Below are positions 36,059-59,100 of a DNA stretch of 64,000 nucleotides, piece after piece. The notes under the pieces were generated by a model. It saw nothing but the letters and a program-made list of their open reading frames with translations. It did not search any database and was not told the DNA's origin. The stretch comes from Schmidtea nova (taxonomy: Eukaryota): the NCBI GenBank assembly GCA_044892505.1, contig CM097883.1, positions 201,438,001-201,502,000 on the forward strand. Direction: 5' to 3'. The first letter of the stretch is position 1, and each line of letters starts with the position of its first letter. The position numbers and the translations under genes were made by a program.

Positions 36059-36632
36059 AAATTTCTCGCCGTTTATAGGTCAGTATTTGATTCGTCTCTC
36101 ATAACATTCGCCATCGGAGATGATGGCTCGTTTGTGTCAATAACGTTATTGATTATGTTCCGGTCATTCGCGTCATTTACCGTTGTTTCGTCGTTGTTAT
36201 GCATGGGTATCAAATACAGAGGAAATGTAGACATATTTAAAATTGATTATATATTATATAAGTGTTGGGCCAGCCAAATCGAGCAGCATCTGAAAATAAT
36301 GTACAATCAATAAAATAAATTTACAACAGAATAACAACAAAATAAATTACCAACACCAAAGCGTAACAAGATAGGCGGCAACATCTGAAGGAAATAAAGT
36401 ATTAATCAAAACAACAAAAATCTTCAAAACTCACTCATGCGAAGCAGATAAAATTGGAATATGACAGCGCGTGGGCGGATGTCACCGAAGAGCTAAAACA
36501 AAATCAAATAAAAATTAAATCATACATAAAATAAACTTACCGCATGATTAACCAAATAAATCAGTGAGTTAAGTTAGGCAGCAAAAAGCCGACAACATGA
36601 AAAAATGAAGCAAACATACACACATAGTCGAT

Positions 36633-36694
36633 GCTGATTGGCTAACCAACAACACCGGTTCAGTATAAATACTGAAGTCAAATCAGTATTTGAC
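36633..36694 (+). promoter_or_regulatory. Candidate promoter in LTR (ATTGG/CCAAT box, TATAAATA at 36664)
   Basis: CTGATTGG at about 36634 and TATAAATA 36664-36671, conserved in the 3' LTR. Confidence 0.35.
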
Positions 36695-37782
36695 AATGTC
36701 ATTTTTTACTGAGTGTGAAGTATCAGCAAAACTTGTAACTGATTTGGAAGCCGCAATAAAAGGTAATTTGGAGTTATGTTTTGATGTATCTAAACCCTCA
36801 TAATTATTTGTAATCATGATAAAATCAATAAGGTTTTCCGGAGGCCTAACAGCCTGACGGATTCTTGGGGCCTCTCAGCGCAACACAATCTTTCGGTTGT
36901 GAGGTGCTGATGCGGCGGGACCATAGGTTTACTAAATACTTAGTAAATGGAAGGGGGATAAATGCACATAGGATGTCTACTACCATCGTAACATCAGTAT
37001 GGGTAAAAGCAATAGAAGGAGGTATTATCTGTCACGACGACATCGAGCAAATAAGTGTACGTAACAGGCGGGTTAATAGATCAATAGGGCATCTAGCGTT
37101 CGTGAAGTCGAGTAAAGTAGCGACGGTTTTGTGCCGAGGATATGTATCATGATAAATAACCCCAAGTTGGATAAATTGAGCACTGACGATGGTAGAGCTA
37201 TACAACGCATAAGTCATGTGAGTTCAGAGGCTGACAGTGCTAGCGTCAGAGGTAAACCATGAATCAACAAGGCATCCCAACATATATATACACCTCTCGA
37301 AGGGTACGAGGGATAGACCCCACGGATATTTAATGATAGTACGATCCGTACCCAATTAACCTGAGTAAGGGATTGATCATGTTCCCCGGATGATGTGATC
37401 ATTGGTAGTTGATAATGATGTTTGGAGATAAAACCTGAGGAGTGATTGAGCATGATTGCTGTAAATATAAACTAAAAATGTCTCGTAGATAATAACATTC
37501 AAACATAATGAACGGTCAAGCGATCACTGTAGATGAAACCAACTTATCATAAACGGCACGATGAATTATGCGTGGCCAAGCAATCGATAGAGTAAATGCA
37601 TTCACCAACAATGATAATAAAATACGACCTACATGATATCGCAAACATCGGACCGGTTCAACACTGAACCACCGACTGAAGCCTACAGAGTTTCACCCTT
37701 AAGTCGAGTAGGTCGACGGGTATAAATAATTGCGCTCACCCGACAAATCTATCACACTAACATAATTCTTATCTCCAGCCAC

Positions 37783-38418
37783 ATGATAAAGACCGAGGGA
37801 TACCAAAGGAATCTGATCGTCTCACGACATATGAAAGTGGAGGATTATGTCATCCGGAAAAAACGACGTATCCGTTCCGTCATCCAGCCAAAGAGGAACC
37901 CTACCATCGATGGAGAAATGGAAGCCCCACGCAGAATTAGCGAAACTGCGCGTCGACACTTACGCCGGTGGATAAGACATCATATGAGTGCAGCCGCCGA
38001 TATTCCGGCTTGCGCTTTCACGATACAATTACGATGGGAAGGAGACCCCGAGTGGACCTCCACCGCGGATCCTGCCGAGCCAAGGACCGATAGATGGTTC
38101 TACCAATTCCTCGACGGACAGCAACGACCCCGTTGGTTATTGAGTAATGAAATGATGACGGGAAGGGCTCTATATCAATTAGGGTACATGCTGCTAGACA
38201 GGCCTCGGTGTCGCTACACTGAGGAAGTCTTCGCCTACTCCAACGCGCCAGGAAGCGTGTCCTTAGATCAGTACCCCGAGCTCAAGGAGCTTCGCCTCTG
38301 GGAGGTGTTTATCTACAAAGATAAACTGAGTTGGAACCCAGCCCCAGAAATGTATTGGGAGAATGGAATTCGGTGCGACGAGTATCCCGCTGATCAGGAA
38401 TTGAGAGCATTCGGGTGA
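37783..38418 (+). CDS. LTR-internal ORF A, 211 aa, unknown function
   Basis: ATG start, uninterrupted 211 codons, preceded by CACTAAC branch point, pyrimidine tract and CAG at 37776-37778. Confidence 0.6.
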   Translation: MIKTEGYQRNLIVSRHMKVEDYVIRKKRRIRSVIQPKRNPTIDGEMEAPRRISETARRHLRRWIRHHMSAAADIPACAFTIQLRWEGDPEWTSTADPAEPRTDRWFYQFLDGQQRPRWLLSNEMMTGRALYQLGYMLLDRPRCRYTEEVFAYSNAPGSVSLDQYPELKELRLWEVFIYKDKLSWNPAPEMYWENGIRCDEYPADQELRAFG

Positions 38419-38571
38419 TCGACACAACCCGAACAAGAATGATTGTCGTAGATATAAAAATATATGTATTTGTGTGCGAACGGTCTTGTTTTGTTTTTCG
38501 AGTGCATGAGAATAGCATGATGATAAGGTGGAGTTGTTTAATAACGACAGGATGACCGAAAGATCGGACAA

Positions 38572-39171
38572 ATGACATATACCACAATTAATGATATATT
38601 TACAGACATGACTGAAACCAAGGACAGAGATTTCAAGCAAGAGGCGCGAGAACATAAGGCGCGTTCACGAGTCTTGGAAAATCGTTTAAGGCAACTGAAT
38701 GACGAGCATCAGAGGATCAAGACAACATGGTTTAACCCAGAGAGGGTTAAAGCCATCCTGCAAGCTAGATACAGGGTGGAACGAGCAGCTGAGGAACATG
38801 CCAGAGAGGTTGCAGCCCTGAAATTGGAGTTGGCCAATTACTTAAAGGTATCGACTCAGGATTTTATCACCGAACAATTGCGCCCAATGATCAGAGCGAG
38901 CACCTTTAACCGATGGGTGGACACGATAGCGGTAACCACGAGTACCCAAACGGAAACAGATGCAGTCGCAATCACGACGATCGAACCGACAACAAGGACT
39001 CCAGCAGGCTCAAAACGAACGAAGAGAAGGAATCGCCTCGGAGCGAAAAAGCGGCGAGAGCGACGTGCATATGCGGATCGCCTCGGGATAGAAGTAGACT
39101 TGCTCAGTGGTCTATCTGAACAAGAACTTCTGAATGTAATTAGACCATCAGTGTTATTGAATTATAAATAA
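38572..39171 (+). CDS. LTR-internal ORF B, 199 aa, coiled-coil plus basic NLS-like tract
   Basis: ATG start, heptad-rich N-half, KRTKRRNRLGAKKRRERR; AATAAA overlaps the stop. Confidence 0.6.
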   Translation: MTYTTINDIFTDMTETKDRDFKQEAREHKARSRVLENRLRQLNDEHQRIKTTWFNPERVKAILQARYRVERAAEEHAREVAALKLELANYLKVSTQDFITEQLRPMIRASTFNRWVDTIAVTTSTQTETDAVAITTIEPTTRTPAGSKRTKRRNRLGAKKRRERRAYADRLGIEVDLLSGLSEQELLNVIRPSVLLNYK

Positions 39172-39174
39172 ATG

Positions 39175-39368
39175 TATATAAATGAATGATTTGACTTGTC
39201 TTGTTTGTTTGAAGTATGTATGAGAATTAAAAGTAATGAAAACCTGGTTCATTTAAAGCTGCAGATATCTAAAAAGTAAATTACCCTAGGACAAAAGAAA
39301 AGAGCATAAGTGGGACCGAAAGAAATCCACAAACACCTTCTAACGGTAGTGGTGGACCCGTGAATAAA
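39175..39368 (+). promoter_or_regulatory. Candidate U3/R/U5 signals: TATATAAA (39175) and AATAAA (39363)
   Basis: Spacing TATA - about 190 nt - polyA signal - about 190 nt - PBS fits canonical LTR geometry. Confidence 0.4.
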
Positions 39369-39562
39369 CAAGGGAATAGTAGCCGCAAGGTTGCTCACCT
39401 GCCTTGTCATTTCACAACGTTGACACAGCACCAACATGATGAGTAGTTAGGGATACATCATGGGTGTCAGCGGGGGAATGTTTTTATGTTGGCGAGATCA
39501 CCCTAATAGATAAAATCCTAATGATCTCAGTTGTCAATCTAACCAACACACCCGCATAAATT

Positions 39563-41875: not shown

Positions 41876-42202
41876 TCGAAATAAAATATTGAGTAAAAGC
41901 CCACGAGAAAGACGACGAAGTGAGGCAGATGAGGACCAAATTAAGCACAAAACTATCCGGATAGAAAAGATCAACAAGTGATAATGGAGATGAATAAATA
42001 ATAATGAGGATAAATGATGAATAGTGAAAATGAATAGCGAATAATGAGGAATAAGGGTTGAAAGAAACCGAATTAATAACGAAAGAATTGAAGGTGCGCA
42101 CCTGAGTATTGATAAATGCGAGTAAAGCTGATTATGTGGCCTAATGATGTTAAAGTATGCATACAAGGAGGAGTAGCAAAGTAAAGTGAGTAAGTGAAGG
42201 GT

Positions 42203-42665: not shown

Positions 42666-43626
42666 GTCAACGAGAGATGTCAGTGGAATCAAAGGTGAGA
42701 AGAGATGGGAATTGAAATGAAGTAGTAAACGCAGTGTGAATAGGAAATAAAGCGAATAGTTGAGAAATAGAGTAGTCGACAGATAAGGGGAGATTTGAAC
42801 TCAGAGCCAGAGAAGCCTGAGAAAAGTAAAGGGGATAATAAGAGCGCTGAGCGACAAAGTAATTGGGGAACTGGGGAAAAGTAATTGGTGTATTTGATAA
42901 TGAATAGATAATTGATACGACTGCATAGATAATTTAAATAGACTTAAAATCAAGGGAAATGGGAAAAATGGGGATCTTCATGAATTATGACTACACCCGT
43001 GAGAGGGACGAGAAACACGATAACGGGGACGTATCGTGTAAGTGATTATTTGTTTTAAGGAAACAAATCAATCAAGCAATTCAAAGCAATCTAGCAGTCA
43101 GAGCAATCAAAGGAAACAAATCAAAGAAGAAGCAAAACAAAAGCGAAGTAGAAAATCAGTTGAGAATATAAGAAGTTGAGGAATAGACAAAATTGCGGAA
43201 CGCGAAACAAGGACAGGTATAATACCAATCCTAACAGAAGCAGAAAGAAAAGCAGCAAAAAGGGCAAAAGCAGCAGCTAAATTAGCGCAACAAAAGGTCG
43301 ACACAGAAGCGATCTTAACCGAAGAAGAAAGAAAAGCAGCGAAAAAGACAAGGCCAGGAAATAAAGCAGCGCAACTGAAGAACAAACCAGCAGAGATCAG
43401 CGATAATTCGAGTAATAAAGAGAATCAAGAAGAAATCCCAGAGGATCCAGAAGTACCAAACGAAGAAGAAACGATAGACAGTGAACTAGTCAGTGAAAAC
43501 AGAACAAGAAGCGAATCAAGAGATAACGAAACAGACAATAGTGAAGAAGAAGAGTTGAATCCAGAAACAAGTGGTGAAATAGAAGCAAAGAAAACTAGTA
43601 CAGTATTCCAAGATAGTGGAATCGGG

Positions 43627-45447
43627 ATGAGTGATCACAGAGAGGATCTAAGAGAAAAATTCAAGGGCGAACCATTCAATGGAGACGCCAGTAGATTGGA
43701 CACGTTTCTGAAGGAGTTTGGCATATTTGTGGATATATGCGGATGGAGTGCAGAAACGTTGGCAAATCGAATCCCGCTATACTTGAAAGATAGCGCATTG
43801 GATCTGTATATTGAAAAGCGATCTGGAAGTAGTCCACCCAGAACGTGGGAAGCGATCAAGGAGTTCTTCCAACAGACGTTTGGGATAAACAAAGTGCTGA
43901 ATGAAGCATTCGATGAGTTTTCAGCAAGAAAACAAAGGAGAAACGAGTCAAATGCGGTGTACGCAAGTGAACTGAGAAAGTTGGCGAAACTGGCGTTCAA
44001 CAGAGGAAGTCCAGTAGATGAGGAATTGATGACAGCGTTATTCGTACGAGGTCTCAGGAGACCTGACATCAGAGCACAAGTGGGATGCAAAGGATGTAAA
44101 ACAGTAGACGAAGCGTTGGAAGCAGCCAACCTATTCGAATTGCATATGGCAATGAACGACATGAGAATTACGGCGGTAATGGGAAAAACGACAGAAGATG
44201 AAGAACAAGGAAAAAGAAATATGAATCAAAGTATTCCCCATTCGCAGAGATTGTTCAAAGAACCGCCAGCGAGGAAGAATAACGGATATATCACGGTGAA
44301 CACGAATGGAGGAAATAGTTACAATGACAGGCAGAATAGGCAATGTCAGACGTGTGGGAAAAACGGACATTGGCAACAAGATTGTTTTCAGAATGTAGCC
44401 TGTAAACTGTGTGGACAAAAAGGTCACTCAGAAAATCGATGTTATGGGAAAACGTGTTACACATGTGGAAAAACCGGACACATGTCAAGAGACTGTAATC
44501 AACAGAGAAGTTGGTCAAACAGTGGAAATAGACCGAATTACGGGAATCGACCAAGCTATGGGAATCAGGGTCAACAACGGAATAACCCAAACAGCAGTGC
44601 AAACGAAGCTAGTATGAAAGAAGCCAAGTTGAGACAGGAGGTATCCAGATTACACGAGATAATCGAAAGCATGGCAAAGGGGAGCCAGCAAGCTGCTCAA
44701 CCAAAGATAAACATGATCCAGTTAATAGAAGCTGAGGCCGAAAGAGAGAATAGAGAAAGCCAACAGAAACATAATCAAGAATGGGCTAGAGTACGACGAG
44801 AAGAAGAACAAGTCAGGCAACAACGATTACAACAGTTAAAAAAGGGAAATCCAAGGATCAACATGATGCGAGCAATGATGGAAGAGAAGCAGCAGGATGA
44901 GTCAGACGAGTTAGAAGTTAAAGAGAAAAGAAACGAAGAGCAGAAACAAGAAGAAGTGAATCAGGAAGTAGAAGTCGCAGAGCAGAATCAAAAGGATGAA
45001 GAAGTAGAAAAAGAAACAGAAACAGAAAAAGAAGTAGAAAAAGAAACGAATCAAGAAGAGGAAGTGAGAATCAAACAAAGAGGAATGTTGGTGATCATGC
45101 CGAATGATCACGTATGGCGATTCAAATATGATGTAAAAGAAGAAGTAGGAAGACTGTTCAACAAAGTAAATGAGATGATTCCGGGAGTAACGAAACTGCC
45201 CAGAGAAGCATTCCTACAAACAGAGGATTTACCGGAAGTAAAGTTGAAGATGACTGATATATGGGAAGATATGGGAGTAACAGAGACGAAAATGAACGTG
45301 ATGATCATCAGAGAGGTGGAACCGGAGAAAATCCCACCACCAGTGAAACATCAAACCCGGATCAGTCGAATATTCAAGGGAAAAATAAGACGAAGACGGT
45401 TGGAAGAAAAAACGAATTGGAGAAAAGAATGGGAAAAGCTGAAATAA
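43627..45447 (+). CDS. gag: Gag (capsid + three CCHC zinc knuckles + acidic/coiled tail); frame open from 43180
   Basis: PFNGD..LDTFL..LYLKDSALDLY..TWEAIKEFF..KQRRNES..YASELRKLA; CQTCGKNGHWQQDC, CKLCGQKGHSENRC, CYTCGKTGHMSRDC (44344-44496). Confidence 0.92.
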   Translation: MSDHREDLREKFKGEPFNGDASRLDTFLKEFGIFVDICGWSAETLANRIPLYLKDSALDLYIEKRSGSSPPRTWEAIKEFFQQTFGINKVLNEAFDEFSARKQRRNESNAVYASELRKLAKLAFNRGSPVDEELMTALFVRGLRRPDIRAQVGCKGCKTVDEALEAANLFELHMAMNDMRITAVMGKTTEDEEQGKRNMNQSIPHSQRLFKEPPARKNNGYITVNTNGGNSYNDRQNRQCQTCGKNGHWQQDCFQNVACKLCGQKGHSENRCYGKTCYTCGKTGHMSRDCNQQRSWSNSGNRPNYGNRPSYGNQGQQRNNPNSSANEASMKEAKLRQEVSRLHEIIESMAKGSQQAAQPKINMIQLIEAEAERENRESQQKHNQEWARVRREEEQVRQQRLQQLKKGNPRINMMRAMMEEKQQDESDELEVKEKRNEEQKQEEVNQEVEVAEQNQKDEEVEKETETEKEVEKETNQEEEVRIKQRGMLVIMPNDHVWRFKYDVKEEVGRLFNKVNEMIPGVTKLPREAFLQTEDLPEVKLKMTDIWEDMGVTETKMNVMIIREVEPEKIPPPVKHQTRISRIFKGKIRRRRLEEKTNWRKEWEKLK

Positions 45448-45803: not shown

Positions 45804-45830
45804 GTAATACAGGAGTTCATAGAGAAGTTA

Positions 45831-48800
45831 TTGAAAGAACCACTCAACGAATACGTAGTACAAATATGGATAAACGAGTGTTCACCGAGAATCTGGATAA
45901 GGAACCCAATGACGGATGGAATTTACAGATGGGTTGAGGACAGATTGGGAAGCTCCTACAAAGACAAATTCATATATTCGGAAAACGGATTGGTGAGAAA
46001 AGGAACGCATATGATAGACACAGGCATCTGGCCAGGAGAAATAACGACGTTATCTATATGCAACACCAAAAAGGAAGAGAACTTACAAGGGATCGTCAAA
46101 GAAGCGAATATGTGTTACGAGATGAGAATAAAACCTCAGTTGATAGAGACAAAAGAGAGAATCTTGGCGGAGAATTTGAATACGATGATAGAACAGATCA
46201 TCCAGCAAATCAAGAAACATCGAAAGGAATTGACGAAAAGCGAGTATGAGAATTTGAAGCAATGTATCGAGACCATACGAGATACAAGTCAAACGAGGCA
46301 TTCAAACTTCAAAACGGACAAGCTAATCGCAAAGATGGGAAAAGAAATGTTTAAAAGAGGAGAAGTATCAGATCTGAAGATTACCGTGAGATTACCGAAT
46401 GAAGAGACAAGACAAATTGAGGTAATACCAGATAGTAAAGTAGGAGAAATAGTAGATGTCATCAATGAGACGATATTACAACGAGAACGGGAAGATGAAC
46501 TCGAGGATGACATCGCTATAAAATACAAAGAACATCTACTGAACGAACGTGACGAAAGACGAGCGTACAAAATCGGCATATGGGATAATTATCAGACAAT
46601 ACATGTCATCAGAATGGATGATGTGCAAAGAGCAACACCAAGAGATGAGGAAAGGAAAAAGAAACGACAAGAGGACGTTATGCGCAAGTTGAGGCAGATA
46701 GTAGAAATCTATCGTAAATGGCAGATGAAGCCAGAATGGGAGACAATATTGGGAGAATTGGATCTTAACAGACGACGATTGACGCCAGTAGAGAAGCAAT
46801 GGGATAACAAAGAGAAATGTTGGAAAGTGAAAAGAGGCGTGTATGAAGAAGATCCAGAAGGAGAAGACAGATATGAAACGAATACGAAACGGATATGTAT
46901 GGTAACAAGGAGGTTATTACCAACGGACTTAGACGAACCAGAAACTGCAGTAATATGGGCAGAATTGGAGAAACAGAAAACGAATGAATTAATCGAGCTG
47001 TTGAGAGGAAATACTCGGAGAAAAAGACAAACAATAAAAGGCTTAGCACAATTCATAATCACAAATGGAGAAGACATGACGAACTTGAGAAAAGCAGCTA
47101 AAGCGATAGCAGAATACAAGAGAGTTAACGAGTGGTGTCCAGAGCAACTAGACGATGTAATAAAAAAGTGGAGAAACAAAGAGTTTGCGGAAGAAACGCC
47201 ACAGAAAATACATTTGAGGATAATGTATCCAAATCAGAGAAAAGAAGAGTTTTGGGTGATGCTAACAGAAAAAGTGAAGAGTGTTAAAGAGAAACTGATG
47301 TATGAACTACCATTCCACCTGCAACATCAAGGACGATCGTTAGATAACAGTTTGGAAATCTGGCTGACACCAGTACAATTGGATCTAATGAATACGCTAA
47401 CAGTGGCACAGATAGTGGGTCAACCACTGAAGTTTAAAGAGGAAAAGAAAGCGAAAGGAAGCATGAGTACACCAAGTCCGATGAAGTCAACAATGACCAC
47501 AGGAACAAGTTCGGGACAAGCAAGGACAACACCAATAAAAACGAGAGAGAGAACACCGCCAGAAGCGTATGACGTCGATGAGATACTAACAGACAGTGAT
47601 GAAGCGATAGAAGAATTAACAAAGTTGACTCAAAAACCAACGGCGAATATTTTTGACAGAATAATAGAGATGCCAATAACGTCACCAGCAGAAATCGACG
47701 ATCAAGGAGTGGAACAGGAGGTAGTCATAGAAATGGTAAACGATTCGGAAGAAGAGCAAGAACAACCACAGTTTACTCAAGAAATGGAAAGATGGTTAGA
47801 ACAACGAGCAAACGAGGGAAGAGATGTTACAGAAGAAACCGGAAGAGCAACGAGATTTGTAGAAACCGGAACTGGAATGGAAAAACGACCAAGAGGAAGA
47901 CCAAAGATAGACCCAACAACAGCAATTCCAAAGACAAGGGAAGAAAGGAGACAAGAGCAATGGGAGACTTGCTTGAAGAAACTGGATAAAATCGCAGAGA
48001 TCAGAGGCAAAGAGGAGAATCAAGTCTGCCAAGGAGAAGAATGGCTCACCAAAACGATAATGGATGTGTTAGCGATAATTGATCCAGAATTAAGGAATTT
48101 GTGGCGGATAAACGAACCTAGTACAAAGGCAAAGATGCTACACAATGCGATAGCACCAATTATGCCAGAATTGATAAAAGCAAAAACAAAATCGAATCAT
48201 CTAGATTGGCAAGGAACCACGATGTTAATAAAAAGGCTACTTAACGGAGCAGAAACGGACACCAAATATCTAGTAGCAATCTCGTATACGATATACAATC
48301 TACTAACGCTAAGCCGAGGGAGTCCGAAGTCAAGTCCGATGGGAAGACATATCAAAAATACGGCGATGATTATCGAGAAGGAAATTGAACCATATATCCT
48401 CAGAAAAGGAGGATGGGAGAAGTTCATAAAAGAAAACCAGGCGAAAGAAGGTTCTAACGTGATGAGAAAGAAACTCGAAGGAGTATTGAGAGAAATGGAG
48501 AATAGACAAACGATGCAAGGAAACGGAAGATCGACGTTGAATCTAAATTCGATAATCATGATGATGTTAGTATGGTTGTTAAGCACAGAAGGTGTAACAA
48601 CTTTCGAGGTATTTGACTGTGATCAAATGAAGTTGGGAGAAAAGTACTCATTGAGAGGTACGGAGCAATGCAAAGATGCAACTCCAGTAGAGTTAAAAGA
48701 GATTAAAAAAGAACAATGGTACCACGTATATCAAGAGGCAGAACTAATAAAGACAATGGTGAATGAATGCAAAGTGCAAAAGACGAGATTCGCATTCTAT

Positions 48801-51800
48801 TGTGGTAGAGGACATTATTCAGCAATTGTCATGCCAGGAACAGAAAGAGAACCAATCGTGTTGCAAGGAGAAGACTGCGAAGCATTGTTTAAGCATGGAG
48901 AAGTGACAACGAGAGACAAAATCAAGATAAGAGGAAAGCCAGGAATGATGTTACAGCAGACGTATTATGTAGCAGGACGAATTACGGGAGGAGAAGGGTA
49001 TTGTCAAGGAGAAACATACCCAATATTCGGAGTACCCGCAACCAACTTAGTGGTGATGGATACGTACATAGTCGAACTGAAAAGCTACGAAGCATTCTTC
49101 GAACCAACAACAGGAGAAATGAAAACGTTATCCATGAGTAAAATTGACAGAAGCATGTGTCAAACGGGAATGTCAACATTGGTATACAAACCGAAAGTGA
49201 ACGAATGTCAATTACAACTGCTACAAGGAGCAAAGTTCGACGAAATCCAAGGCAAAACGTTCCAAGAAGAGGACGATGACGACAAAGCTAGAGCAAAACA
49301 TCTCAAAGAAGCTTTAGAGAATAAAAGACAATTGAAACCGGATCATAGAGAGAAACGGATAGAGATGAGAACCACACCAACAGTGTTGATAACCACAAAT
49401 CAGGATGTGGGCATGAGATTCATAAAAGGGAAAGCAACCCTTAAGTGCAGTACAACAGTATACGAAACAAACTATCCAGGAATATATGTGTCAAAGCAAG
49501 AAGTACCGAATACGAAACCCAAGATCGACACAATGGATATCAAGCTACACTTGTATGTGAATAATAAAATGGATTTCTTATTCCATAGAGGACAAGCCTC
49601 ATTGCAAAAAGTGTACTACGATCTGATAAATAACGATTGTATACTGAATCGGGAAATATTAAAGACAAAGTTGGCCGTAGCGATTACGAATCCAGATAGC
49701 GCGATGCCGTTATTACCACTGAGAGAAGGACATTTCGGAAGAGTGGTCGGAGAAGCAATGTACGTATACATTTGCGAAAAGACACACGCATCGCTAGCAG
49801 CAACAACGCAGTTGAAACCTGGACAATGTACAAACGAACTAGAAATCGATTATAAAGGAAAAGTACGATACGTTCAACCGGTGACGAGAATTATCAATCC
49901 ACCAGGGTTTGAACCAAATCCATTCAACTGTAGTAATGCGTACGGACCGCTTTATCAGAAGCCAGATGGCAAATGGGTTATGTTCCCAGGAAGAACTGAA
50001 GTATTAGCACCAAGAGAATTTGAGCTAATGCAGTTGTCAAAGGATAGACAGTTCAGCGACGTAGATGTCTCAAACAACGGAATCTATAGTCCAAAGGATC
50101 TAGAAGCAGCAAGGCAGAATATATTATTCCCGGCAAGAAGAGAAGCATTACTGTCAAATATCGTAACGATAACGGGAGGAACGAATTATCGAGAAGGACC
50201 GAATTACGAACTGCTGTTGTCACCGGCACATTTCAAGAAAGCCACAGAAAATATGATGAAGGCAATGTGGGGAAGATTCCTGATATTCGGACAAATGATG
50301 GCTGGAATACTGGGAGTGATATTGATAATACAAATCGTCAGAGTGATAATAACGCAGATGTTAGCGTGTTTCGACATCTACAAGAGAGAAAAGAAAGTGA
50401 ATTGGAAGATGGTAGTAGGATTCTTACCATTCCTTGCGAAAACGATGGTGTTACACGGACACTCAAAAGACATACATCGAATAAAGAGGTTGTTGAAGAT
50501 ACTTGCGAAAATGAGAGGAACAAACGAAGATGTCGGAAGGAAATTCAAAAAGATTATACAAGACGAGCAAGCAAGACGACAACTAAAGAAAGAAAGGAAA
50601 GGATTATGGGAAAGAGTAAGGGGATATCGAACACAAGATGATTCAAGCAACGACGACGATGACGATGACGATCGAGGAGGACAAGCGAATATAAACCAGA
50701 TTCCACAGTATAACGAAAAGAGTGCAGTTGAGAATTGGAGATACAGCGCTCCACCCCAGTCAATGTATAACGAACCTATATATAAAGCGAAGCCGAATAT
50801 GATGCAGATGATGCCGATGACAAGTATATACCCGATAATTCCAGAAGACTGCAAAGTAAAACGAGGTAGAAGCGTAGACTCGTTGGAAGACACGCACACG
50901 ATAGCGGTTATGTCCACAAATATGGGACCGATTTTAACAACAACCGTAGAAATAAACGGAAGAGAAATCGAAGCAATGATCGATACAGGCGCGAATATTT
51001 CGGCAATCGACATCAATTATATACCCGAGAAAAATCAAGGAGAAATCGAGAAGACGAATGTACATGTAATCGCGTGCAGTCAGGAGACAGTAGAAGTAGC
51101 CGGAAGATGGTTTGTAAAAATTAAGCATCGAGGTGCAGAAATCAACACGTACATCGCTGTAATACCATCGCTGAGTGTACCATGTATTATTGGAACTGAC
51201 CTGATGCCAGACCTGTTCAAGGAAATCGTAATTGATCTAGGAGCAATGAAACTAAAAGATAGAACAGGAAAAATCTGCAGAATGAAAGTTAAAGTGGCAA
51301 GCACGGAACAAATAGTAGTGCCAGCGAGACATGAAATGATGTGTTATGTAAAGATCGATTCAACAATAAAGGGAGATATGATATTCGAACCCAGTAAGAA
51401 GTTCGAAGCGAAGAAAGAATTACCAATGGCAAGAGAATTGGTTACGATAAACCAAGAAGGAGAAATACCGATCAATCTGGTAAACTTCGACGAAGAGGAC
51501 AAGATAATATACGAGAATGAGAATTTGGGTAAATTGACACCCATGTCCGAAATCGAAATACCAGACAAGAATGAGAAAGGCAAAGGCGAATTACCATGGA
51601 AAATCGACAGTATGTTGTTAGACGAGCAACAAAAAGAACAGTTACAGAAACTGTTGATGGAGTATCAAGACATATTCGCAGCATCAGATCTGGATTTAGG
51701 AACATGTGACGTAACATTACATACGATACCGTTGACAGACGAGACGCCAATCGCATTAAGACCATATAAACTGGCAGAAGCTCAAAAAGCAGTGGCAGAA

Positions 51801-54800
51801 GAAGAGGTACAAAAGATGTTAGATGCAGAGGTCATCGAACCCAGTTGCTCACCCTGGCAATTCCCAGTGGTGATGGTGAAAAAGAAGGATGGAACTCAGA
51901 GATTCTGTATCGATTACAGACGATTGAACGCAGTTACGAAAAGAGATACGTACCCACTGCCAGACATAAATGAAATGTTGTTGACGCTACAAGGAGCAGC
52001 CTATTTCACGTCACTGGATTTAAAGAGCGGATATTGGCAGATCAAAATGAAAGACGAGGATAAAGAAAAGACAGCTTTCACAATCGGACGAGATCTGTAC
52101 CAATTCAAGAAAATGCCGTTTGGGTTAACAAACGCGCCACCATCATTCCAGAGATGCATGAATTTCGTAACACATGGCATAAAACAATGCATGGTGTATA
52201 TCGACGATCTATTGATCTACTCCGCAACATTTGAAGATCATTTACAAGACATCAGAAATGTGTTCGTGAAATTAAGGCAGTGGAAACTGAAATTGAAGCC
52301 GTCAAAGTGCGATTGGGCAAAAGAGAAAGTGACATTCTTAGGTCACATTGTATCAGCAAAAGGAAAAGAACCAGATCCAAGGAATATCGAAAAAGTCAAA
52401 GAATGTCCACCACCAAAGACAGTGACTCAAATACAAGAATTTTTGGGATTGTGTGGATATTATCGAAAGTTTATCAAGGACTATGCAGGAATATCAAAGC
52501 CAATGCAAGAATTAGTAAGACAAGACGTGTCGTTTGTATGGGGACCAGAACAGCAAGCAGCATTTGAAACATTACGAGATAAGCTGATTACAGCACCAAT
52601 ATTGGTCCATCCAAACTTTAAGAAGCCATTTCTGTTGGCAACAGACGCAAGTGGATATGCAGCAGGAGCAGTACTAGGCCAATTTGACGAAGAAGGCAAG
52701 GAAAGAGTAATCGGATATTACAGTCGAACCTTCAGGAAGCATGAAAAGAATTACTCAGTCACGGAAAGAGAAGCCTATGCGATAATATTGGCAATCAAGC
52801 ATTTCAAATACCTATTGTGGGGTCATGAGATATATATTACAACGGATCATCAACCATTGGTATGGTTAGGTCAACATAAAGAATCATCAAGTAGATTGAT
52901 GCGTTGGGCGATGCAACTACAAGAATACTCGCCATTCATAAAGTTTAAAGCAGGAAAAGCAAATGCGAACGCAGATTGCATGTCAAGATTTACATTCCCA
53001 GAATTGGTGAACCTAAACGCTCTGAAAATATGTGCATTAATAGCGGAGGATTTGGATTTCAACGAATTAAGGAAAGATCAACTCGAAGAGGAAGAGTTGG
53101 GATTGATCAGCAAGTACTTGAAAGAAAGGGAAATAGAAAAATTCGGCAAGAACCAAATGTTGCGCGAACATATGCAGAAATATCAACATAGATATGTGAT
53201 GGAAAAAGGATGGTTATTGATACAAGATGGAGAACGAAGATTAATGTGCTTACCTGCGAATAGACGAAAGGAAATCATGACTCAATATCATGACGGAAAA
53301 TTAGGCGGACATATGTCAGCAAAAAAGACAATAGGGAGATTGAGACAAAAGTATTTTTGGCCAACCATGGAAGATGATGTGAAGGAATGGATAAAGAACT
53401 GCTTAACCTGTGCGACAAGAAAGAACGTCGGAACAAAGTGGAAAACACCACTAAAACCAATGCCAATACCTGCAGAACCAATGGCAACAATAGCAATGGA
53501 TGTAGTTGGGCCATTGCCGGAAAGTTTAAAGGGGAATCAATATATCTTAGTAGTCACGGACTACCTAACGAAGTTCCCAGAAGCGTTCGCAATACCAGAT
53601 CAAAAGGCGAAAACAGTCGCGAGAATATTGGTGGAAGAGATATGCTGCAGATACGGAACACCAAAGAAAATCCTAACGGATCAAGGAACAAATTTCATGA
53701 GTGAAATATTAGACGAAGTAACGAATTACTTCCGAATCGCGAAATTACGAACATCCCCATACCATCCACAAACGAACGGTCAAACAGAAAGGTTCAATGG
53801 AACATTGATACGCATGTTGTCAAATTACGTCAGTAAACATCAAACTGACTGGGACGAATATATTAACTTGTGTTTAATGGCATATAGAATGTCAATACAT
53901 GCGGCAACAAAGCTAAGTCCATTCCAACTAATGTACGGAAGAGATTACAACTTACCGATCGATTTAGAATACCAACCACCATTATCGCAGTACATGGAGG
54001 TTGACGATTACGTTACAAAGTTCAAAGAAAGAATGCAAGAAATCTGGAAAACGGCGGAACTAAACATCAAGTTCTATCAAGAGAGTTACAAGGATCTACA
54101 TGATCAGAAAAAGAATGTGAAAGCACATGATTTAAAAGTTGGAGATTGGGTGATAATCGAAACACCAGAGATAATACCCGGTACGGTGAAGAAACTCCAA
54201 CGACCAGGCAAAGGGCCATATGAAATCACGACAGTGAATGAAAACAATGTGCGAGTACGATTGGTGAACAATCCATTGGTAAGACCAATATACGTGAACG
54301 CATGTCGATGCAGGAAAATACCAAAGACAGCAACTCTATCACCAGAGAAACGGGTGATGACAAGATCACAGACGGCGAGAATTAATATGTTGCGAGTACA
54401 ACAAAAGCCGCAAACAAGTCTAGAAGACAACCGAAGAGGAGCAACGGATATCAAAGAACTGGCAAAGAGGACCAGAGAAATTATACCAGAATGGAAATGG
54501 TGGTTCGATTTCAATATACTGTCAGAAGTACGGAAAAACGTAATGGAGTATGCGAAGGATAGAACAGGGCATCCAATAACAAGAACGCTGCTAGAGGAGA
54601 TCCCGCAAACGTTTAATTTACAAGACAAAGACGGTAACACAGCGTTGCACAATGCAATCAAGCACAGTGGGAACGAAAAAGTGAAAGAGATCGTAGAGAT
54701 GATACTCGAAGGTGGGGGAGAAATTGACAAAGTGAATTGGGAAGGAATCACTCCACTCATGATGATGACAATTCATGGAAGAAACGATGAAATAGTCAAG

Positions 54801-57800
54801 CTATTCGGAAACACCAGATCAAATTGGATGACAAAAGATAAAGAAGGACGAACATTCTTGAATCATGCAATTGACAGAGCAAATCACCGAATACTGAAGT
54901 ATATCACGGAAAATGCCACGTGGGAAATCGATGAACTAACCAGAGGATCGATCATGAAACAAGCAATCGGAGTTAGAAACAGTAAAACCTGGAGAATATT
55001 GCTAAAGTGGAAACGACCAGAAGGAGATTCGTGGGTCGTAGATTGTAATGAAGTATTCACAAGGGGAGAAAATGCGTTACTGAAACATCTATTAGAAGTA
55101 GCATACGATCCAAAAACACTTGCAGTGTTGATAGCGAGAGATACGTTACGGGTTAGCGAAAACCCAAGAGAATACAAGTTGGATGACCGAAAGAAGGAAC
55201 TATTCGGATTAATCAAGAAATGGTGTGATAAGCAATGGAATCCGGATATGAGCTTCGAACATTTTTATGACATCCAAAAGCAGCACAAAGAAATAAGCAA
55301 GCGATATAAAGAGCTGGTGGAAGCATTGAAGTATGGACAATTCTTCAGACAAGCAGTGTATCAAGACCAACGGATGAAACAGATGCAAACACGAATAAGA
55401 AGCAAAGCAGTGTTGTTCAATGCAAAAGCCGATTATCAAGAGAGATTAGACGCAATCGTAGCAAAAGCACAGGAAAAATTATCGGAATTCAAAGAGAATA
55501 AAAACTCGTTGGAAATACTAGGAGCAATTACAGAGAAAGTACACAGATACGCACAAGGAGATTATAACGAGAGTGACATAGAAACGATCAAAAATCAAAT
55601 GCCAGTAGCATTCCTATTATCAAAGGATGGGAAATTGCCGATACACTGGGCATTACGTCGAAGGAAAGAAAACGAAGTGCTAGAAATAACAAAAGCGATG
55701 GTCAAGTGCGAAGCAGACATGAATACGGTTGATGATAATGGAGACACAGTCATGATAATCGCAGCAAGAAAGAAGACGAACTTTAAAGTGCTAAGTAAAT
55801 TTTACGAAGCAGGAGCAAAAATTGAAGGGAAAAATGGAAAGAATAATTCCATCACAGATATCGCAATACAGTGGAACAACTTCGAGATGATCAAGTTCAT
55901 AAAGTCCATCAAGAAACAAGATGATATAGAATACCTGGCAAATAACGTAAAGAATTTCAGTCTGACAGTAATGATACACGACGTAGAGAAAACAAGAGCA
56001 TTACTAACATGGGTGAATCCGATCACCAAGGAACCAGTGTTCAAGATCAATGACCATATGGAACAGAATCAGAATTGGTGTATCAGAAGCGCGTTATTAA
56101 GACACAAAAAGCCAGAGATAGTAGAAGAATTCCTAAAGAGAAGAGATTTGAAATTCACGAACAACCCAAAGGAACAGGAACGAATGGGAAGATGGAAAGA
56201 CTTATTCAGAAAATATGTGAAGGAGTGGGCAAATGCCAAAGAAACGATCAAGCAAAGTGGACTAAAAGACATAGAACCATCCAAGGATATGGAAATACGT
56301 GAATTCGAGTCTAGCACACTCGCAGTTCAAGCGTATGAAAGATTGATTGAAGAAATTAATGTCGAGGACGACATTTCGAAAGGACCAGGGGGTGGTTACA
56401 GAGACTTCGACGACAAAAGTAACAATGAAAAGAACAACGAAGACAATGACAACAAAAGAACAGAGGATAATGGAAAAGAAAGACAAGAAGAACCGAAACC
56501 AACGAGAAACGACAAGAAAGGAGAAGCCGAAGAACGAGAAAACAGTGGAACAAAAGACGAACGTACGAACTATGGAAAACGAACAGGAAGTCTACTTTTG
56601 AGACCAGAAATGTTGTGTATTGCGATATTGATAACAATCATCGGACAAGGAGAAGCCAAGAAACAATACGTCACGCTAGAGATAATCAGAGGAAATGAAG
56701 TATACGAAAAAATATGCTGGAAAGAAAACATGAGGAAAAACGATACGCTGAAGTGTATATTGTCAGATTTGAAGCGAGACGTCATCCAAATCAAAGGATT
56801 GGAGAAAGAAAAGTCATACATAATATGCGCAATAAAGCAGAGAGGAGAACCAAAAGCACCTCAAGTAACTGCGTGTCAATTATATAAAGCAACAGAAGCG
56901 CTGAAAATACAGAAATGGGTTGGGAAAAGAAGTGAAGAGACAACGAGAAGAACAGAAGTGGAATCAGAGAAAGGGAAGAATCAATCTGAAGCAGAAGAGG
57001 GAATCAGAAACCGAACAGAGAAAGAAAGAATAACCAAAAATCCAGCGGGCAAATTAACATTCCAACCAGAATTGATATGTGTAGCATTAATATTAATCCT
57101 TATTAAGAGAATCATGGAGGACATAGATATCAGCGTGATGACGTTAGTAAATATCCAAGACCAACGAACAACGAATGGAAGATGTTGGGGACGAAACAAT
57201 GAAGTAATGGGAATCAGCGAAACAAGAGAAAGTCGAGAAGCAGAGACAAATGAAGAAATCGAAATAACAGAAATAGAGACAGATAAAAAATGTGAACTAT
57301 GTCTCATGGAAAAGGCAGCAAACGGAAACAGACCAGGAACAAGCGAGTGTAAAGTGTTCCAAGCAAAGGAGATAATTGAGTTCCCAAAAAGAAAGAAACA
57401 AGATCAAGAAATGATTGCGAATGAAGTAGTAACAGTGGAGATAAAAAACATTGATCGGAGAACAATTGGGATGTGTTGGAGAAAATACATCGGAGTATCG
57501 ACCAACATCATAATACCGCAATGTAGAACGAGAGAACGAGGAATCCCGTTTCCACTAAATGGATTCGAAGTCGGACAAGCATACGAAATCTGCATAATCC
57601 GAAGAATAAGAGAAGTAATACAAAGAAGCCTGGAGTGCAAACTGTACAAGACGCCAGAGCAAATTAACGGAACGAGAACGATTGAAATGGGAAGAAGTCG
57701 ACAGAGGAAAAGAAAGTCAAGAAGAATCACGACAACCAACAGTCAAGGAACTCAACAGACAACAACAGAAAGGACGACAATAGAAAACGAACCGGAATCA

Positions 57801-58535
57801 ACAACGTTGATAATATGGAAGATCCATAAAAAAGTCCTAGAAATCTGTTGGACATTAATGCCAAACAGTATGGGAAAGTCCCCACGAAACTGTCAAAAGA
57901 CATCAAATAATAAAGGAGAAATAATCGAGGTAGAAATGAGGAAGTTGAAAACAAACGCAGAATACGAAGTATGTGCAATCGAAGAAGTGGACGCACAAGG
58001 AAATCCACAGGAAAGGTGCGACACCTATTACACGCCAAAGAACATAACAACCAAAAGGAGAATCAGAAAGTTAGAATTCAGAGAATTGAGCCTAAAAAGA
58101 GAACAAACAGAGACGGAAGAAGCAACATCTAGTCAACAAGAAAGATGGGAACCAGAGAAAGTGATCGAAGAAGTCAGACGGAGACAACAACAATATGAAC
58201 AATGGGAAGCAGAATGGAAAGGTCAATATGGCGTGATGATAAACCAAAGTGAAACTCCAAAAAGGAGCATTGGAAAAACAATAATGGGATTAATCAGTAT
58301 GGGAGTATTCATAGGGTGTATACCGCTGATAACGATCATGATAGTATGTTGGAGATATGGCATGAGAAATAAGACCATAGCAGTAAAATGGCCGGACGTA
58401 AAGGTCACGAATTACAACATAAAACTACCAAAAGCAGTACGAGAAGAGCTGAAAAGACGATCAAAACACGAAGAGATGTGGGTACAGATCGAAGACGAGG
58501 AACTGTACGAAGGAAAACCAGTGATAGTTGTATAG
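45831..58535 (+). CDS. pol: 4234-aa polyprotein: Ubl-like / Bcl-2-like / Env / PR / RT / RNase H / IN / ankyrin / FN3-like + TM
   Basis: Single uninterrupted frame (open from 45804; listed start is TTG) containing all the domains listed below. Confidence 0.95.
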   Translation: MKEPLNEYVVQIWINECSPRIWIRNPMTDGIYRWVEDRLGSSYKDKFIYSENGLVRKGTHMIDTGIWPGEITTLSICNTKKEENLQGIVKEANMCYEMRIKPQLIETKERILAENLNTMIEQIIQQIKKHRKELTKSEYENLKQCIETIRDTSQTRHSNFKTDKLIAKMGKEMFKRGEVSDLKITVRLPNEETRQIEVIPDSKVGEIVDVINETILQREREDELEDDIAIKYKEHLLNERDERRAYKIGIWDNYQTIHVIRMDDVQRATPRDEERKKKRQEDVMRKLRQIVEIYRKWQMKPEWETILGELDLNRRRLTPVEKQWDNKEKCWKVKRGVYEEDPEGEDRYETNTKRICMVTRRLLPTDLDEPETAVIWAELEKQKTNELIELLRGNTRRKRQTIKGLAQFIITNGEDMTNLRKAAKAIAEYKRVNEWCPEQLDDVIKKWRNKEFAEETPQKIHLRIMYPNQRKEEFWVMLTEKVKSVKEKLMYELPFHLQHQGRSLDNSLEIWLTPVQLDLMNTLTVAQIVGQPLKFKEEKKAKGSMSTPSPMKSTMTTGTSSGQARTTPIKTRERTPPEAYDVDEILTDSDEAIEELTKLTQKPTANIFDRIIEMPITSPAEIDDQGVEQEVVIEMVNDSEEEQEQPQFTQEMERWLEQRANEGRDVTEETGRATRFVETGTGMEKRPRGRPKIDPTTAIPKTREERRQEQWETCLKKLDKIAEIRGKEENQVCQGEEWLTKTIMDVLAIIDPELRNLWRINEPSTKAKMLHNAIAPIMPELIKAKTKSNHLDWQGTTMLIKRLLNGAETDTKYLVAISYTIYNLLTLSRGSPKSSPMGRHIKNTAMIIEKEIEPYILRKGGWEKFIKENQAKEGSNVMRKKLEGVLREMENRQTMQGNGRSTLNLNSIIMMMLVWLLSTEGVTTFEVFDCDQMKLGEKYSLRGTEQCKDATPVELKEIKKEQWYHVYQEAELIKTMVNECKVQKTRFAFYCGRGHYSAIVMPGTEREPIVLQGEDCEALFKHGEVTTRDKIKIRGKPGMMLQQTYYVAGRITGGEGYCQGETYPIFGVPATNLVVMDTYIVELKSYEAFFEPTTGEMKTLSMSKIDRSMCQTGMSTLVYKPKVNECQLQLLQGAKFDEIQGKTFQEEDDDDKARAKHLKEALENKRQLKPDHREKRIEMRTTPTVLITTNQDVGMRFIKGKATLKCSTTVYETNYPGIYVSKQEVPNTKPKIDTMDIKLHLYVNNKMDFLFHRGQASLQKVYYDLINNDCILNREILKTKLAVAITNPDSAMPLLPLREGHFGRVVGEAMYVYICEKTHASLAATTQLKPGQCTNELEIDYKGKVRYVQPVTRIINPPGFEPNPFNCSNAYGPLYQKPDGKWVMFPGRTEVLAPREFELMQLSKDRQFSDVDVSNNGIYSPKDLEAARQNILFPARREALLSNIVTITGGTNYREGPNYELLLSPAHFKKATENMMKAMWGRFLIFGQMMAGILGVILIIQIVRVIITQMLACFDIYKREKKVNWKMVVGFLPFLAKTMVLHGHSKDIHRIKRLLKILAKMRGTNEDVGRKFKKIIQDEQARRQLKKERKGLWERVRGYRTQDDSSNDDDDDDDRGGQANINQIPQYNEKSAVENWRYSAPPQSMYNEPIYKAKPNMMQMMPMTSIYPIIPEDCKVKRGRSVDSLEDTHTIAVMSTNMGPILTTTVEINGREIEAMIDTGANISAIDINYIPEKNQGEIEKTNVHVIACSQETVEVAGRWFVKIKHRGAEINTYIAVIPSLSVPCIIGTDLMPDLFKEIVIDLGAMKLKDRTGKICRMKVKVASTEQIVVPARHEMMCYVKIDSTIKGDMIFEPSKKFEAKKELPMARELVTINQEGEIPINLVNFDEEDKIIYENENLGKLTPMSEIEIPDKNEKGKGELPWKIDSMLLDEQQKEQLQKLLMEYQDIFAASDLDLGTCDVTLHTIPLTDETPIALRPYKLAEAQKAVAEEEVQKMLDAEVIEPSCSPWQFPVVMVKKKDGTQRFCIDYRRLNAVTKRDTYPLPDINEMLLTLQGAAYFTSLDLKSGYWQIKMKDEDKEKTAFTIGRDLYQFKKMPFGLTNAPPSFQRCMNFVTHGIKQCMVYIDDLLIYSATFEDHLQDIRNVFVKLRQWKLKLKPSKCDWAKEKVTFLGHIVSAKGKEPDPRNIEKVKECPPPKTVTQIQEFLGLCGYYRKFIKDYAGISKPMQELVRQDVSFVWGPEQQAAFETLRDKLITAPILVHPNFKKPFLLATDASGYAAGAVLGQFDEEGKERVIGYYSRTFRKHEKNYSVTEREAYAIILAIKHFKYLLWGHEIYITTDHQPLVWLGQHKESSSRLMRWAMQLQEYSPFIKFKAGKANANADCMSRFTFPELVNLNALKICALIAEDLDFNELRKDQLEEEELGLISKYLKEREIEKFGKNQMLREHMQKYQHRYVMEKGWLLIQDGERRLMCLPANRRKEIMTQYHDGKLGGHMSAKKTIGRLRQKYFWPTMEDDVKEWIKNCLTCATRKNVGTKWKTPLKPMPIPAEPMATIAMDVVGPLPESLKGNQYILVVTDYLTKFPEAFAIPDQKAKTVARILVEEICCRYGTPKKILTDQGTNFMSEILDEVTNYFRIAKLRTSPYHPQTNGQTERFNGTLIRMLSNYVSKHQTDWDEYINLCLMAYRMSIHAATKLSPFQLMYGRDYNLPIDLEYQPPLSQYMEVDDYVTKFKERMQEIWKTAELNIKFYQESYKDLHDQKKNVKAHDLKVGDWVIIETPEIIPGTVKKLQRPGKGPYEITTVNENNVRVRLVNNPLVRPIYVNACRCRKIPKTATLSPEKRVMTRSQTARINMLRVQQKPQTSLEDNRRGATDIKELAKRTREIIPEWKWWFDFNILSEVRKNVMEYAKDRTGHPITRTLLEEIPQTFNLQDKDGNTALHNAIKHSGNEKVKEIVEMILEGGGEIDKVNWEGITPLMMMTIHGRNDEIVKLFGNTRSNWMTKDKEGRTFLNHAIDRANHRILKYITENATWEIDELTRGSIMKQAIGVRNSKTWRILLKWKRPEGDSWVVDCNEVFTRGENALLKHLLEVAYDPKTLAVLIARDTLRVSENPREYKLDDRKKELFGLIKKWCDKQWNPDMSFEHFYDIQKQHKEISKRYKELVEALKYGQFFRQAVYQDQRMKQMQTRIRSKAVLFNAKADYQERLDAIVAKAQEKLSEFKENKNSLEILGAITEKVHRYAQGDYNESDIETIKNQMPVAFLLSKDGKLPIHWALRRRKENEVLEITKAMVKCEADMNTVDDNGDTVMIIAARKKTNFKVLSKFYEAGAKIEGKNGKNNSITDIAIQWNNFEMIKFIKSIKKQDDIEYLANNVKNFSLTVMIHDVEKTRALLTWVNPITKEPVFKINDHMEQNQNWCIRSALLRHKKPEIVEEFLKRRDLKFTNNPKEQERMGRWKDLFRKYVKEWANAKETIKQSGLKDIEPSKDMEIREFESSTLAVQAYERLIEEINVEDDISKGPGGGYRDFDDKSNNEKNNEDNDNKRTEDNGKERQEEPKPTRNDKKGEAEERENSGTKDERTNYGKRTGSLLLRPEMLCIAILITIIGQGEAKKQYVTLEIIRGNEVYEKICWKENMRKNDTLKCILSDLKRDVIQIKGLEKEKSYIICAIKQRGEPKAPQVTACQLYKATEALKIQKWVGKRSEETTRRTEVESEKGKNQSEAEEGIRNRTEKERITKNPAGKLTFQPELICVALILILIKRIMEDIDISVMTLVNIQDQRTTNGRCWGRNNEVMGISETRESREAETNEEIEITEIETDKKCELCLMEKAANGNRPGTSECKVFQAKEIIEFPKRKKQDQEMIANEVVTVEIKNIDRRTIGMCWRKYIGVSTNIIIPQCRTRERGIPFPLNGFEVGQAYEICIIRRIREVIQRSLECKLYKTPEQINGTRTIEMGRSRQRKRKSRRITTTNSQGTQQTTTERTTIENEPESTTLIIWKIHKKVLEICWTLMPNSMGKSPRNCQKTSNNKGEIIEVEMRKLKTNAEYEVCAIEEVDAQGNPQERCDTYYTPKNITTKRRIRKLEFRELSLKREQTETEEATSSQQERWEPEKVIEEVRRRQQQYEQWEAEWKGQYGVMINQSETPKRSIGKTIMGLISMGVFIGCIPLITIMIVCWRYGMRNKTIAVKWPDVKVTNYNIKLPKAVREELKRRSKHEEMWVQIEDEELYEGKPVIVV
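45849..47417 (+). other. Two to three ubiquitin-like domains in polyprotein (45849-46061 weak; 46371-46613; 47202-47417)
   Basis: LKITVRLPNEETRQIEVIPDSKVGEIV..YKIGIWDNYQTIHVI and IHLRIMYPNQRKEEFWVMLTEKVKSVKEKL..HQGRSLDN..TLTV follow the beta-grasp pattern. Confidence 0.6.
47961..48440 (+). other. Bcl-2-like domain in polyprotein
   Basis: BH3-like CLKKLDKIAE, BH1-like LLNGAETDTKYLVAISY (NWGR not conserved), BH2-like EPYILRKGGWEKF (GGW at 48408-48416). Confidence 0.55.
48537..50460 (+). other. env: Envelope glycoprotein, class III fusion type (chuvirus/Monjiviricetes G-like), in frame upstream of protease
   Basis: Signal-like IIMMMLVWLLSTEG; FDC..YSL..C, ECKVQKTRFAFYCG.GH, YETNYPGIY, LHLYVNNKMDFL, DCILNREIL, VGEAMYVYIC, GIYSPKDLEAARQNILFPARREALL; TM 50277-50372. 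Confidence 0.8.
50930..51220 (+). other. Aspartic protease domain
   Basis: VEINGREIEAMIDTGANISAI (DTG at 50982) and CIIGTDLM. Confidence 0.95.
51780..52400 (+). other. Reverse transcriptase domain (Gypsy)
   Basis: SPWQFPVVMVKKKDG..FCIDYRRLN, LDLKSGYWQI, KTAF, MPFGLTNAPPSFQR, YIDD (52197-52208). Confidence 0.97.
52630..52990 (+). other. RNase H domain
   Basis: LATDASGYAAGAVL, NYSVTEREAYAI, TDHQPL, RLMRW, ANANADCMSR. Confidence 0.95.
53289..54320 (+). other. Integrase (HHCC + DDE core + GPY)
   Basis: HDGKLGGH..CLTC, IAMDVVGPLP, LTDQGTNF, YHPQTNGQTERFN, GKGPYEI. Confidence 0.96.
54612..55905 (+). other. Two ankyrin-repeat clusters (54612-54910 and 55614-55905)
   Basis: DKDGNTALHNAI, NWEGITPLMM, DKEGRTFLNHAI; KDGKLPIHWAL, DDNGDTVMIIAA, GKNNSITDIAI. 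Confidence 0.85.
56592..58349 (+). other. Four Cys-containing FN3-like repeats with two signal/TM-like segments and a C-terminal TM helix
   Basis: Repeats share C-W, L/F-x5-Y-x-[IV]-C and terminal C-x2-[YF]; hydrophobic PEMLCIAILITIIGQGEA (56592-56657), PELICVALILILI (about 57054-57110), TM IMGLISMGVFIGCIPLITIMIVC (58281-58349). Confidence 0.6.
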
Positions 58536-59011: not shown

Positions 59012-59100
59012 TGAATAAGCGGAAAATTGTGTAAAAACGTGTAAATAAAGAATCAGAAAAATCAAAAATATGGGGAAATTGATGTAAATATTGTTGTAGA

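Follow-up and report, generated by a model that had tools for sequence, protein, structure and literature searches.

A predicted Bcl-2-fold domain ahead of a putative internal Env signal sequence in the polyprotein of a Burro-like LTR element

A 29.6-kb Burro-like Ty3/Gypsy LTR element of Schmidtea nova harbors, in its polyprotein frame and ahead of the Env glycoprotein, a domain that is real and selected and very likely has a Bcl-2 fold. The element was found in a stretch of 64,000 nucleotides, which we refer to as the window. We tentatively propose, with confidence a little short of even, that this is a diverged Bcl-2-fold domain of a Gag-Env-Pol polyprotein that would be tethered to the ER by the Env signal and would act as a viral-type pro-survival Bcl-2.

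The element and its polyprotein

The element is flanked by a 4-bp target-site duplication, and its two LTRs are 99.4–99.6% identical to each other. Its main features are given below with their positions in the window.

36263..39556, + strand: 5' LTR of 3.3 kb, from LTR comparison and the 4-bp target-site duplication
43180..45447, + strand: Gag with CCHC knuckles, from Pfam and the ORF list
45804..58535, + strand: polyprotein frame, an ORF of 4,243 aa, with the order unknown part, Bcl-2, Env, PR, RT, RNase H, IN, ankyrins, membrane-protein tail
62564..64000, + strand: 3' LTR, which runs on past the window end to about 65,859 in window-equivalent coordinates

Over the element, Pfam recognizes Gag CCHC knuckles, a Monjiviricetes-type fusion glycoprotein, PR, RT, RNase H, integrase and ankyrins, as well as TRAF-like and C3HC4_3 RING domains in separate ORFs. 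A ubiquitin-like domain at 46902–47450 of the polyprotein was unconfirmed by Pfam. The TRAF-like ORF (59083–60513) is complete, with RING, zf-TRAF and MATH, and the C3HC4_3 RING ORF (40104–40577) is short. A YAG lies at most 8 nt upstream of the first ATG in four of the six element ORFs checked.

The element is present in high copy. All 150 scored candidates match it, among 1,017 candidates found in its own genome, and 33 of the 150 matches listed have frames of at least 5,000 aa. In the window copy, two lesions, a frameshift (near 45.4 kb) and a stop (near 45.8 kb), split gag from the polyprotein, and because gag is out of frame this locus may not yield the full precursor. In the six families mapped, Gag, the Bcl-2 domain and the beginning of Env are all in the same frame, with PR and RT behind Env in the adjoining stretch.

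Several further observations concern the element and its surroundings. The 3.3-kb LTR contains ORFs of 230 and 208 codons (37726–38418 and 38545–39171) without a clear Pfam match, and a tandem array of a 19-nt unit is situated between the RING ORF and gag (41427–41913). A GC-rich, G-skewed block occupies window positions 30001–32000, and a minus-strand ORF, labeled transposase-like by eye, lies beside the 5' LTR (35702–36079). A different element bearing PR and RT is found directly upstream of the family C copy (L113:308–3829).

Homology to Bcl-2 proteins

The region 47958–48602 is stop-free in the frame of the 4,243-aa ORF. The window domain alone gave no match in Pfam, PDB sequences, the ESM Atlas or a word-indexed protein search, and both it and its sister subfamily stayed below the curated cut-off of PF00452, with no Pfam match for either. 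Other families of the element were collected by searching the same genome with PF00452 and PF24664. Seven representatives were derived from 91 GGW-to-Env matches by dropping rows with a stop in the domain and collapsing the rest at 90%; since the extraction demanded a GGW-like motif followed by [YF]DC, this set cannot reveal families that have no such domain.

In all five representatives outside the window family, the positional equivalent of the domain matches PF00452 (E 2e-8 to 1e-3; two of the five over the cut-off), and hhalign aligns the window family with these five at E 2.5e-5 and a probability of 75%. A profile made from the seven element representatives matches Bcl-xL in the PDB (E 1e-7) and, when run against 1.84 billion proteins, returned 29 matches, of which 21 match PF00452 at E<0.01 and six have the same Env downstream. 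One of the 29, P0003, bridges to the window domain (BLAST E 7e-11). Two others, P0002 with saposin repeats and P0013 with ankyrin repeats, were rejected as spurious repeat artefacts. An HMM built from 15 element sequences, with the window family excluded, gives the window domain 52.6 bits; among 3,000 decoys, shuffled with the GGW tail left intact, none attains this score and the maximum is 20.1 bits. With a smaller HMM of five sequences the domain scores 13.1 bits, and none of 3,933 scored decoys is as high. On these sequence comparisons, homology of the window domain to Bcl-2 proteins via intermediates is supported.

A tree was made from seven element and 11 host Bcl-2 segments over 75 columns, omitting the host loci L049, L063 and L066, which have a stop in the match. 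It is saturated, with support on three of 15 branches, and therefore neither a donor nor a single origin can be claimed from it. The genome itself contains at least 14 Bcl-2-like loci outside the element (L038–L046, L049, L057, L059, L063 and L066), including a divergent W-S-[RKH] group and genes that we take, from resemblance, to be Bak-like and Bok-like. No BH3 exon was found within 10 kb of the two Bak-like host genes.

Predicted fold

48021..48449, + strand: Bcl-2-fold core, predicted α1–α8, from AlphaFold, VIA and Foldseek

When AlphaFold was given the seven-row alignment, the best model had a pLDDT of 76 and a pTM of 0.72, and the other four models reached 46–63. The alignment behind this confident model contained five rows already scoring as Bcl-2, cut on GGW. 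A control fold given nothing but copies of the window's own family failed, with a pLDDT of 39.7, and the evidence from the model therefore depends on the sister rows. All 38 PDB rows listed by Foldseek are Bcl-2 family members, with TM of about 0.5–0.6 and a best E of 2.5e-3; no match was returned at E 0.001 or below. VIA superposes the model on Bfl-1/A1 with Z 14.0 and an rmsd of 2.8 Å over 135 aa, the core being model residues 22–164; VIA is a second look at Foldseek's own matches, and by the tool's account helical models can attain Z 13–14. In the viral structure library, the best matches given by name are Bcl-2s of herpesviruses and ASFV, and proteins of the poxvirus A46/A52/B14 type are not named among the structural matches listed.

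The initial annotation had put forward an AlphaFold and Foldseek check of the fold. The model does match the Bcl-2 fold over its whole extent (Z 14, rmsd 2.8 Å), and the homology agrees. It is highly probable that the window domain has a Bcl-2 fold.

BH motifs and the extra N-terminal helix

47961..48014, + strand: extra N-terminal helix with a BH3-like motif, model helix H2-19, outside the core aligned by VIA
48237..48287, + strand: BH1-equivalent at α4–α5, from alignment with sister families and Bcl-xL
48387..48425, + strand: BH2-like EPYILRKGGWEKF, with GGW at 48408–48416

The GGW is invariant in the seven representatives, whose rows were cut on GGW. Within the BH2 pattern W-x(4,5)-GGW, the first Trp is a Tyr in the window family and a Trp in the other five representatives. 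The BH1-equivalent, RLLNGAETDTKYLVAISY, is degenerate: it aligns with the BH1 of the sister families, and TDTK (48255–48266) replaces NWGR. Over the BH1 columns of 17 element rows, Gly is present in one, and a Lys or Arg occupies the Arg position in 15. Several host Bcl-2 genes of the same genome also have no BH1 Gly. Loss of this Gly is compatible with binding, because tanapox 16L is described as binding BH3 with 'NDNR', the Arg contact being the hallmark (PMC8310162).

LDKIAE (47982–47999), which we assume to be the motif meant as BH3 in the initial annotation, is the only match to L-x-x-[IVM]-[AG]-[DENS] in the 4,243-aa ORF. A BH3-like L-x-x-I-A-[E/N/S] motif occurs on the helix before α1 in five of the seven representatives and lies 125–142 aa before GGW. 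LDKIAE is not a canonical α2 BH3, since its helix sits N-terminal to the Bcl-2 core (residues 22–164). In α2 itself, the strict BH3 (L-x-x-x-G-D) is found in none of the seven representatives, and there is no BH3 Asp. Of the BH3, BH1 and BH2 order that had been claimed, the degenerate BH1, the GGW-containing BH2 and the hydrophobic segment behind them are borne out, but the supposed 'BH3' belongs to an additional helix ahead of α1. Because the domain has neither a BH1 NWGR nor an α2 BH3 and stays below the Pfam cut-off, we regard the domain as a divergent homologue and not as a canonical member of the Bcl-2 family.

Selection on the domain

The Bcl-2 domain is under strong purifying selection. 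It shares 73% amino acid identity with the sister subfamily, with differences at about 80 of 102 synonymous sites and a dN of 0.16. Among close copies at 29 loci, pN/pS in the domain is 0.03, a value biased low because these loci were the top protein matches to the Bcl-2 region, and the subfamily comparison was therefore relied on. In contrast to the domain, the linker that follows it evolves fast, at 37–43% identity with the sister subfamily over 48432–48536, and is near neutral, with dN/dS of 0.46–0.87 over four copies. When 47958–49199 is compared with L031 and L034–L036, synonymous change has reached saturation in the Bcl-2 domain, with a pS of about 0.79, whereas the start of Env next to it is unsaturated, with a dS of 0.44–0.49. 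This suggests recombination between subfamilies near the signal sequence.

The Env junction

47883..47906, + strand: AT-hook-like or basic motif KRPRGRPK, just upstream of the Bcl-2 domain, from the sequence
48432..48530, + strand: fast-evolving linker without a protease-like motif, from motif scan and subfamily comparison
48531..48602, + strand: predicted internal Env signal sequence, from hydropathy and charge, with a predicted cut after 48602 (VTT^FEVFDC)
48603..50351, + strand: Env fusion-glycoprotein ectodomain and transmembrane helix (50295–50351), from PF24664 (E 2.5e-72) and hydropathy

The order of domain, 47–76-aa linker, hydrophobic segment and Env was seen in all 13 representatives examined, seven from the same genome and six from outside. 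In the window, the uncharged stretch covers 19 residues (48531–48587), with a best 19-residue hydropathy of 1.42. Uncharged runs are 14–22 residues long in the own-genome representatives and 11–13 in three of the six outside relatives. The net charge ahead of the segment ranges from 0 to +4 in the seven own-genome representatives. Signal peptidase follows the (-3,-1) rule, which calls for small residues at these positions. A cut at one aligned site, three residues before [YF]DC, fits this rule in 7/7 own-genome and 5/6 outside representatives (12/13 in total), and neighboring offsets fit in 0, 4 and 2 of the seven.

The domain had been placed directly before the Env signal. It does precede the signal, but about 38 residues separate the window GGW from the hydrophobic stretch and 62 separate it from the predicted cut. 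The proposal that the Env signal doubles as a membrane anchor fits the single-ORF topology, the conserved n/h/c anatomy and viral precedent. The membrane would be that of the ER rather than of mitochondria, because a signal sequence inserts co-translationally, and the anchoring is perhaps transient. We consider at least transient ER anchoring of the Bcl-2 domain by the Env signal sequence to be likely.

A recurring word, [RK]-I-[NC]-[MA]-hydrophobic, is found at several known domain borders of the polyprotein and may mark protease sites. In the motif scan of the window, it was absent between 46890 and the signal sequence, linker included, and the signal sequence would thus form the end of the upstream product. 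A crude scan gave no consistent support for a separate spliced env mRNA, and two of the seven representatives lack a Met in the interval from GGW to the hydrophobic segment. YAG sites between GGW and the segment were not above background in the same kind of crude scan. Three runs of one study, of unspecified kind, gave no GT..AG joint among the six listed and are uninformative on splicing.

The AT-hook-like motif has a counterpart in families A2 and B and in P0003 and P0004, and none was seen at the equivalent place in families C, D and E; Pfam AT_hook reaches only E 0.26 in family B. Farther along the polyprotein, the tail (56586–58350) has two more signal-like hydrophobic segments (56586 and 57048) and a transmembrane helix (58290). 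The blocks around these segments contain Cys and are Pfam-negative, and this looks like the same internal-signal arrangement producing a surface protein.

Proposed mechanism and alternatives

In the mechanism that we favor, the hydrophobic segment would insert N-in/C-out, an orientation that we infer because the charge ahead of it is net positive or neutral, and the Env signal would keep the domain at the ER membrane, facing the cytosol. Signal peptidase would release Env, and the segment would stay with the upstream product, a situation known from the polyproteins of pesti- and hepaciviruses. The element protease, whose putative specificity is read from the motif only, would cut upstream, where the nearest protease-like motif is at 46890, and would spare the linker; the product left at the ER would be about 570 aa long. 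The groove, with Lys at the BH1 Arg position, would bind a BH3 or BH3-like helix of the host, such as that of Bak/Bok-like proteins or Beclin 1, and would keep the producing cell alive through ER-heavy Env synthesis. Bok, IP3R and Beclin 1 are described as acting at the ER (PMC11209288). Taken separately, pro-survival activity of the putative vBcl-2 through a BH3 groove has about an even chance. A point against this mechanism is that hydrophobic runs so short resemble a cleavable signal more than a permanent anchor.

Uncharged runs of only 11–22 residues leave room for a serious alternative, in which signal peptide peptidase takes the anchor away. The peptidase would clip the segment after signal peptidase has acted and release a soluble Bcl-2-fold product, which might be nuclear by way of the AT-hook-like motif. 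We rate this outcome as rather unlikely: the short h-regions (11–13 uncharged residues in three of the six outside relatives), the Asn/Ser within the h-region of the window, the AT-hook-like motif adjoining the domain in several families and the precedent of hepacivirus and pestivirus core (PMC8310223) are in its favor, whereas the own-genome runs reach 14–22 residues and families C, D and E have no AT-hook-like motif there. The repurposed fold could instead serve as a matrix-like adaptor, with the signal anchor keeping the precursor of Gag at the ER next to Env (and next to Pol, which follows the tail of Env), so that capsids would assemble and bud there. Conservation of Bcl-2, linker, signal and Env in all six families mapped, while the length from Gag to the domain varies about threefold, is consistent with such a structural role, as is the loss of the BH1 Gly. 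However, the hydrophobic segment alone suffices for tethering, 15 of 17 rows retain a basic residue in BH1 and the element bears other death-related cargo; we consider a mainly structural function unlikely.

A46, A52, B14 and K7 are poxvirus proteins with a Bcl-2 fold, and a signaling antagonist of their kind would bind TRAF/IKK-type adaptors outside the groove. The best structural matches of the window domain are groove-binding Bcl-2s (Bfl-1, Bcl-xL, A179L and herpesviral proteins), and it retains the BH2 and BH1 frame of cellular Bcl-2; we therefore think this reading improbable, even though BH1 and BH3 are degenerate and the same element encodes a TRAF-like protein and ankyrin repeats. We regard it as extremely improbable, and already largely refuted, that the domain is a passenger in decay or a helical bundle that arose by chance. 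There was no direct Pfam match and the own-family control fold failed, but purifying selection, retention across families and outside relatives, and a score of 52.6 bits against a decoy maximum of 20.1 all oppose it. Returning to the ER-tethered pro-survival domain, a speculative extension, to which we give little credence, is that, before the polyprotein has been processed, the conserved BH3-like helix occupies the groove of its own domain or serves as bait for pro-survival proteins of the host, the Env signal being both a tail anchor and a Gag-ER tether. If true, a self-latched, ER-anchored Bcl-2 of Burro-type elements would wire the control of cell death to particle maturation.

Comparison with known systems

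A BCL2-like motif is described for planarian Burro-2, -3 and -4, with Env homology 'between BCL2 and PR' (PMC6431247). The arrangement of BCL2 followed by Env in Burro elements is thus already published there and is not new here. The window element is likened to Burro/GYPSM1 (Grohme et al. 2018, cited at second hand) by published description. In that description, Burro-2, -3 and -4 and GYPSM1 share with it an LTR element of about 30 kb, Gag-(Ubl)-BCL2-Env-PR-RT-RH-IN-ankyrins in one ORF, Env directly between BCL2 and PR, and TRAF and RING cargo. Unlike in those elements as described, the domain of the window family is too diverged for Pfam, and TRAF is a separate ORF downstream of pol. The account of Burro in section 7 of PMC6431247 is silent on a signal sequence, an anchor, BH motifs and an extra N-terminal helix. 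A literature search found no paper proposing the Env signal as a Bcl-2 anchor, Grohme 2018 and Lee 2026 with their supplements lying outside its reach.

Internal signals of pesti- and hepaciviruses offer a parallel, in that signal peptidase leaves the signal of the next glycoprotein attached to the C terminus of the protein before it (PMC8310223). In those viruses the protein so extended is core or a glycoprotein, with the core anchor removed by SPP, whereas in the window it would be a Gag-linked Bcl-2 fold. With pro-survival Bcl-2s and their viral mimics (Bfl-1/A1, Bcl-xL, ASFV A179L and herpesviral vBcl-2), the window domain shares a predicted eight-helix fold (Z 12–14), the BH2 GGW, a basic residue at the BH1 Arg position and a C-terminal hydrophobic segment. 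It differs from them in having neither NWG nor the α2 BH3 Asp, and its identity to them is 7–16%. Unlike the pro-survival Bcl-2s, it would be cut from a polyprotein, and its tail would be a co-translational signal and not a post-translational tail anchor.

The review PMC11209288 places viral Bcl-2 in dsDNA viruses, and retrotransposons go unmentioned in that treatment; if working, a Bcl-2 in a retroelement would extend the viral Bcl-2 range beyond dsDNA viruses. The B-IAP of Burro1, for which protection of stem cells and a benefit to planarian regeneration are reported (Lee et al. 2026 Dev Cell, cited in PMC13465017), is likewise a death-pathway protein borne by an element of the same group, but it is an IAP with a reported function. 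A working Bcl-2 would be a second anti-death arm of elements with a regeneration-aiding IAP. As the presence and position of the domain were already published, the value of the present work lies in a sharpened model, which specifies the ER and not mitochondria, a BH1 that retains its basic residue but not its Gly, an additional BH3-like helix and a defined site of cleavage.
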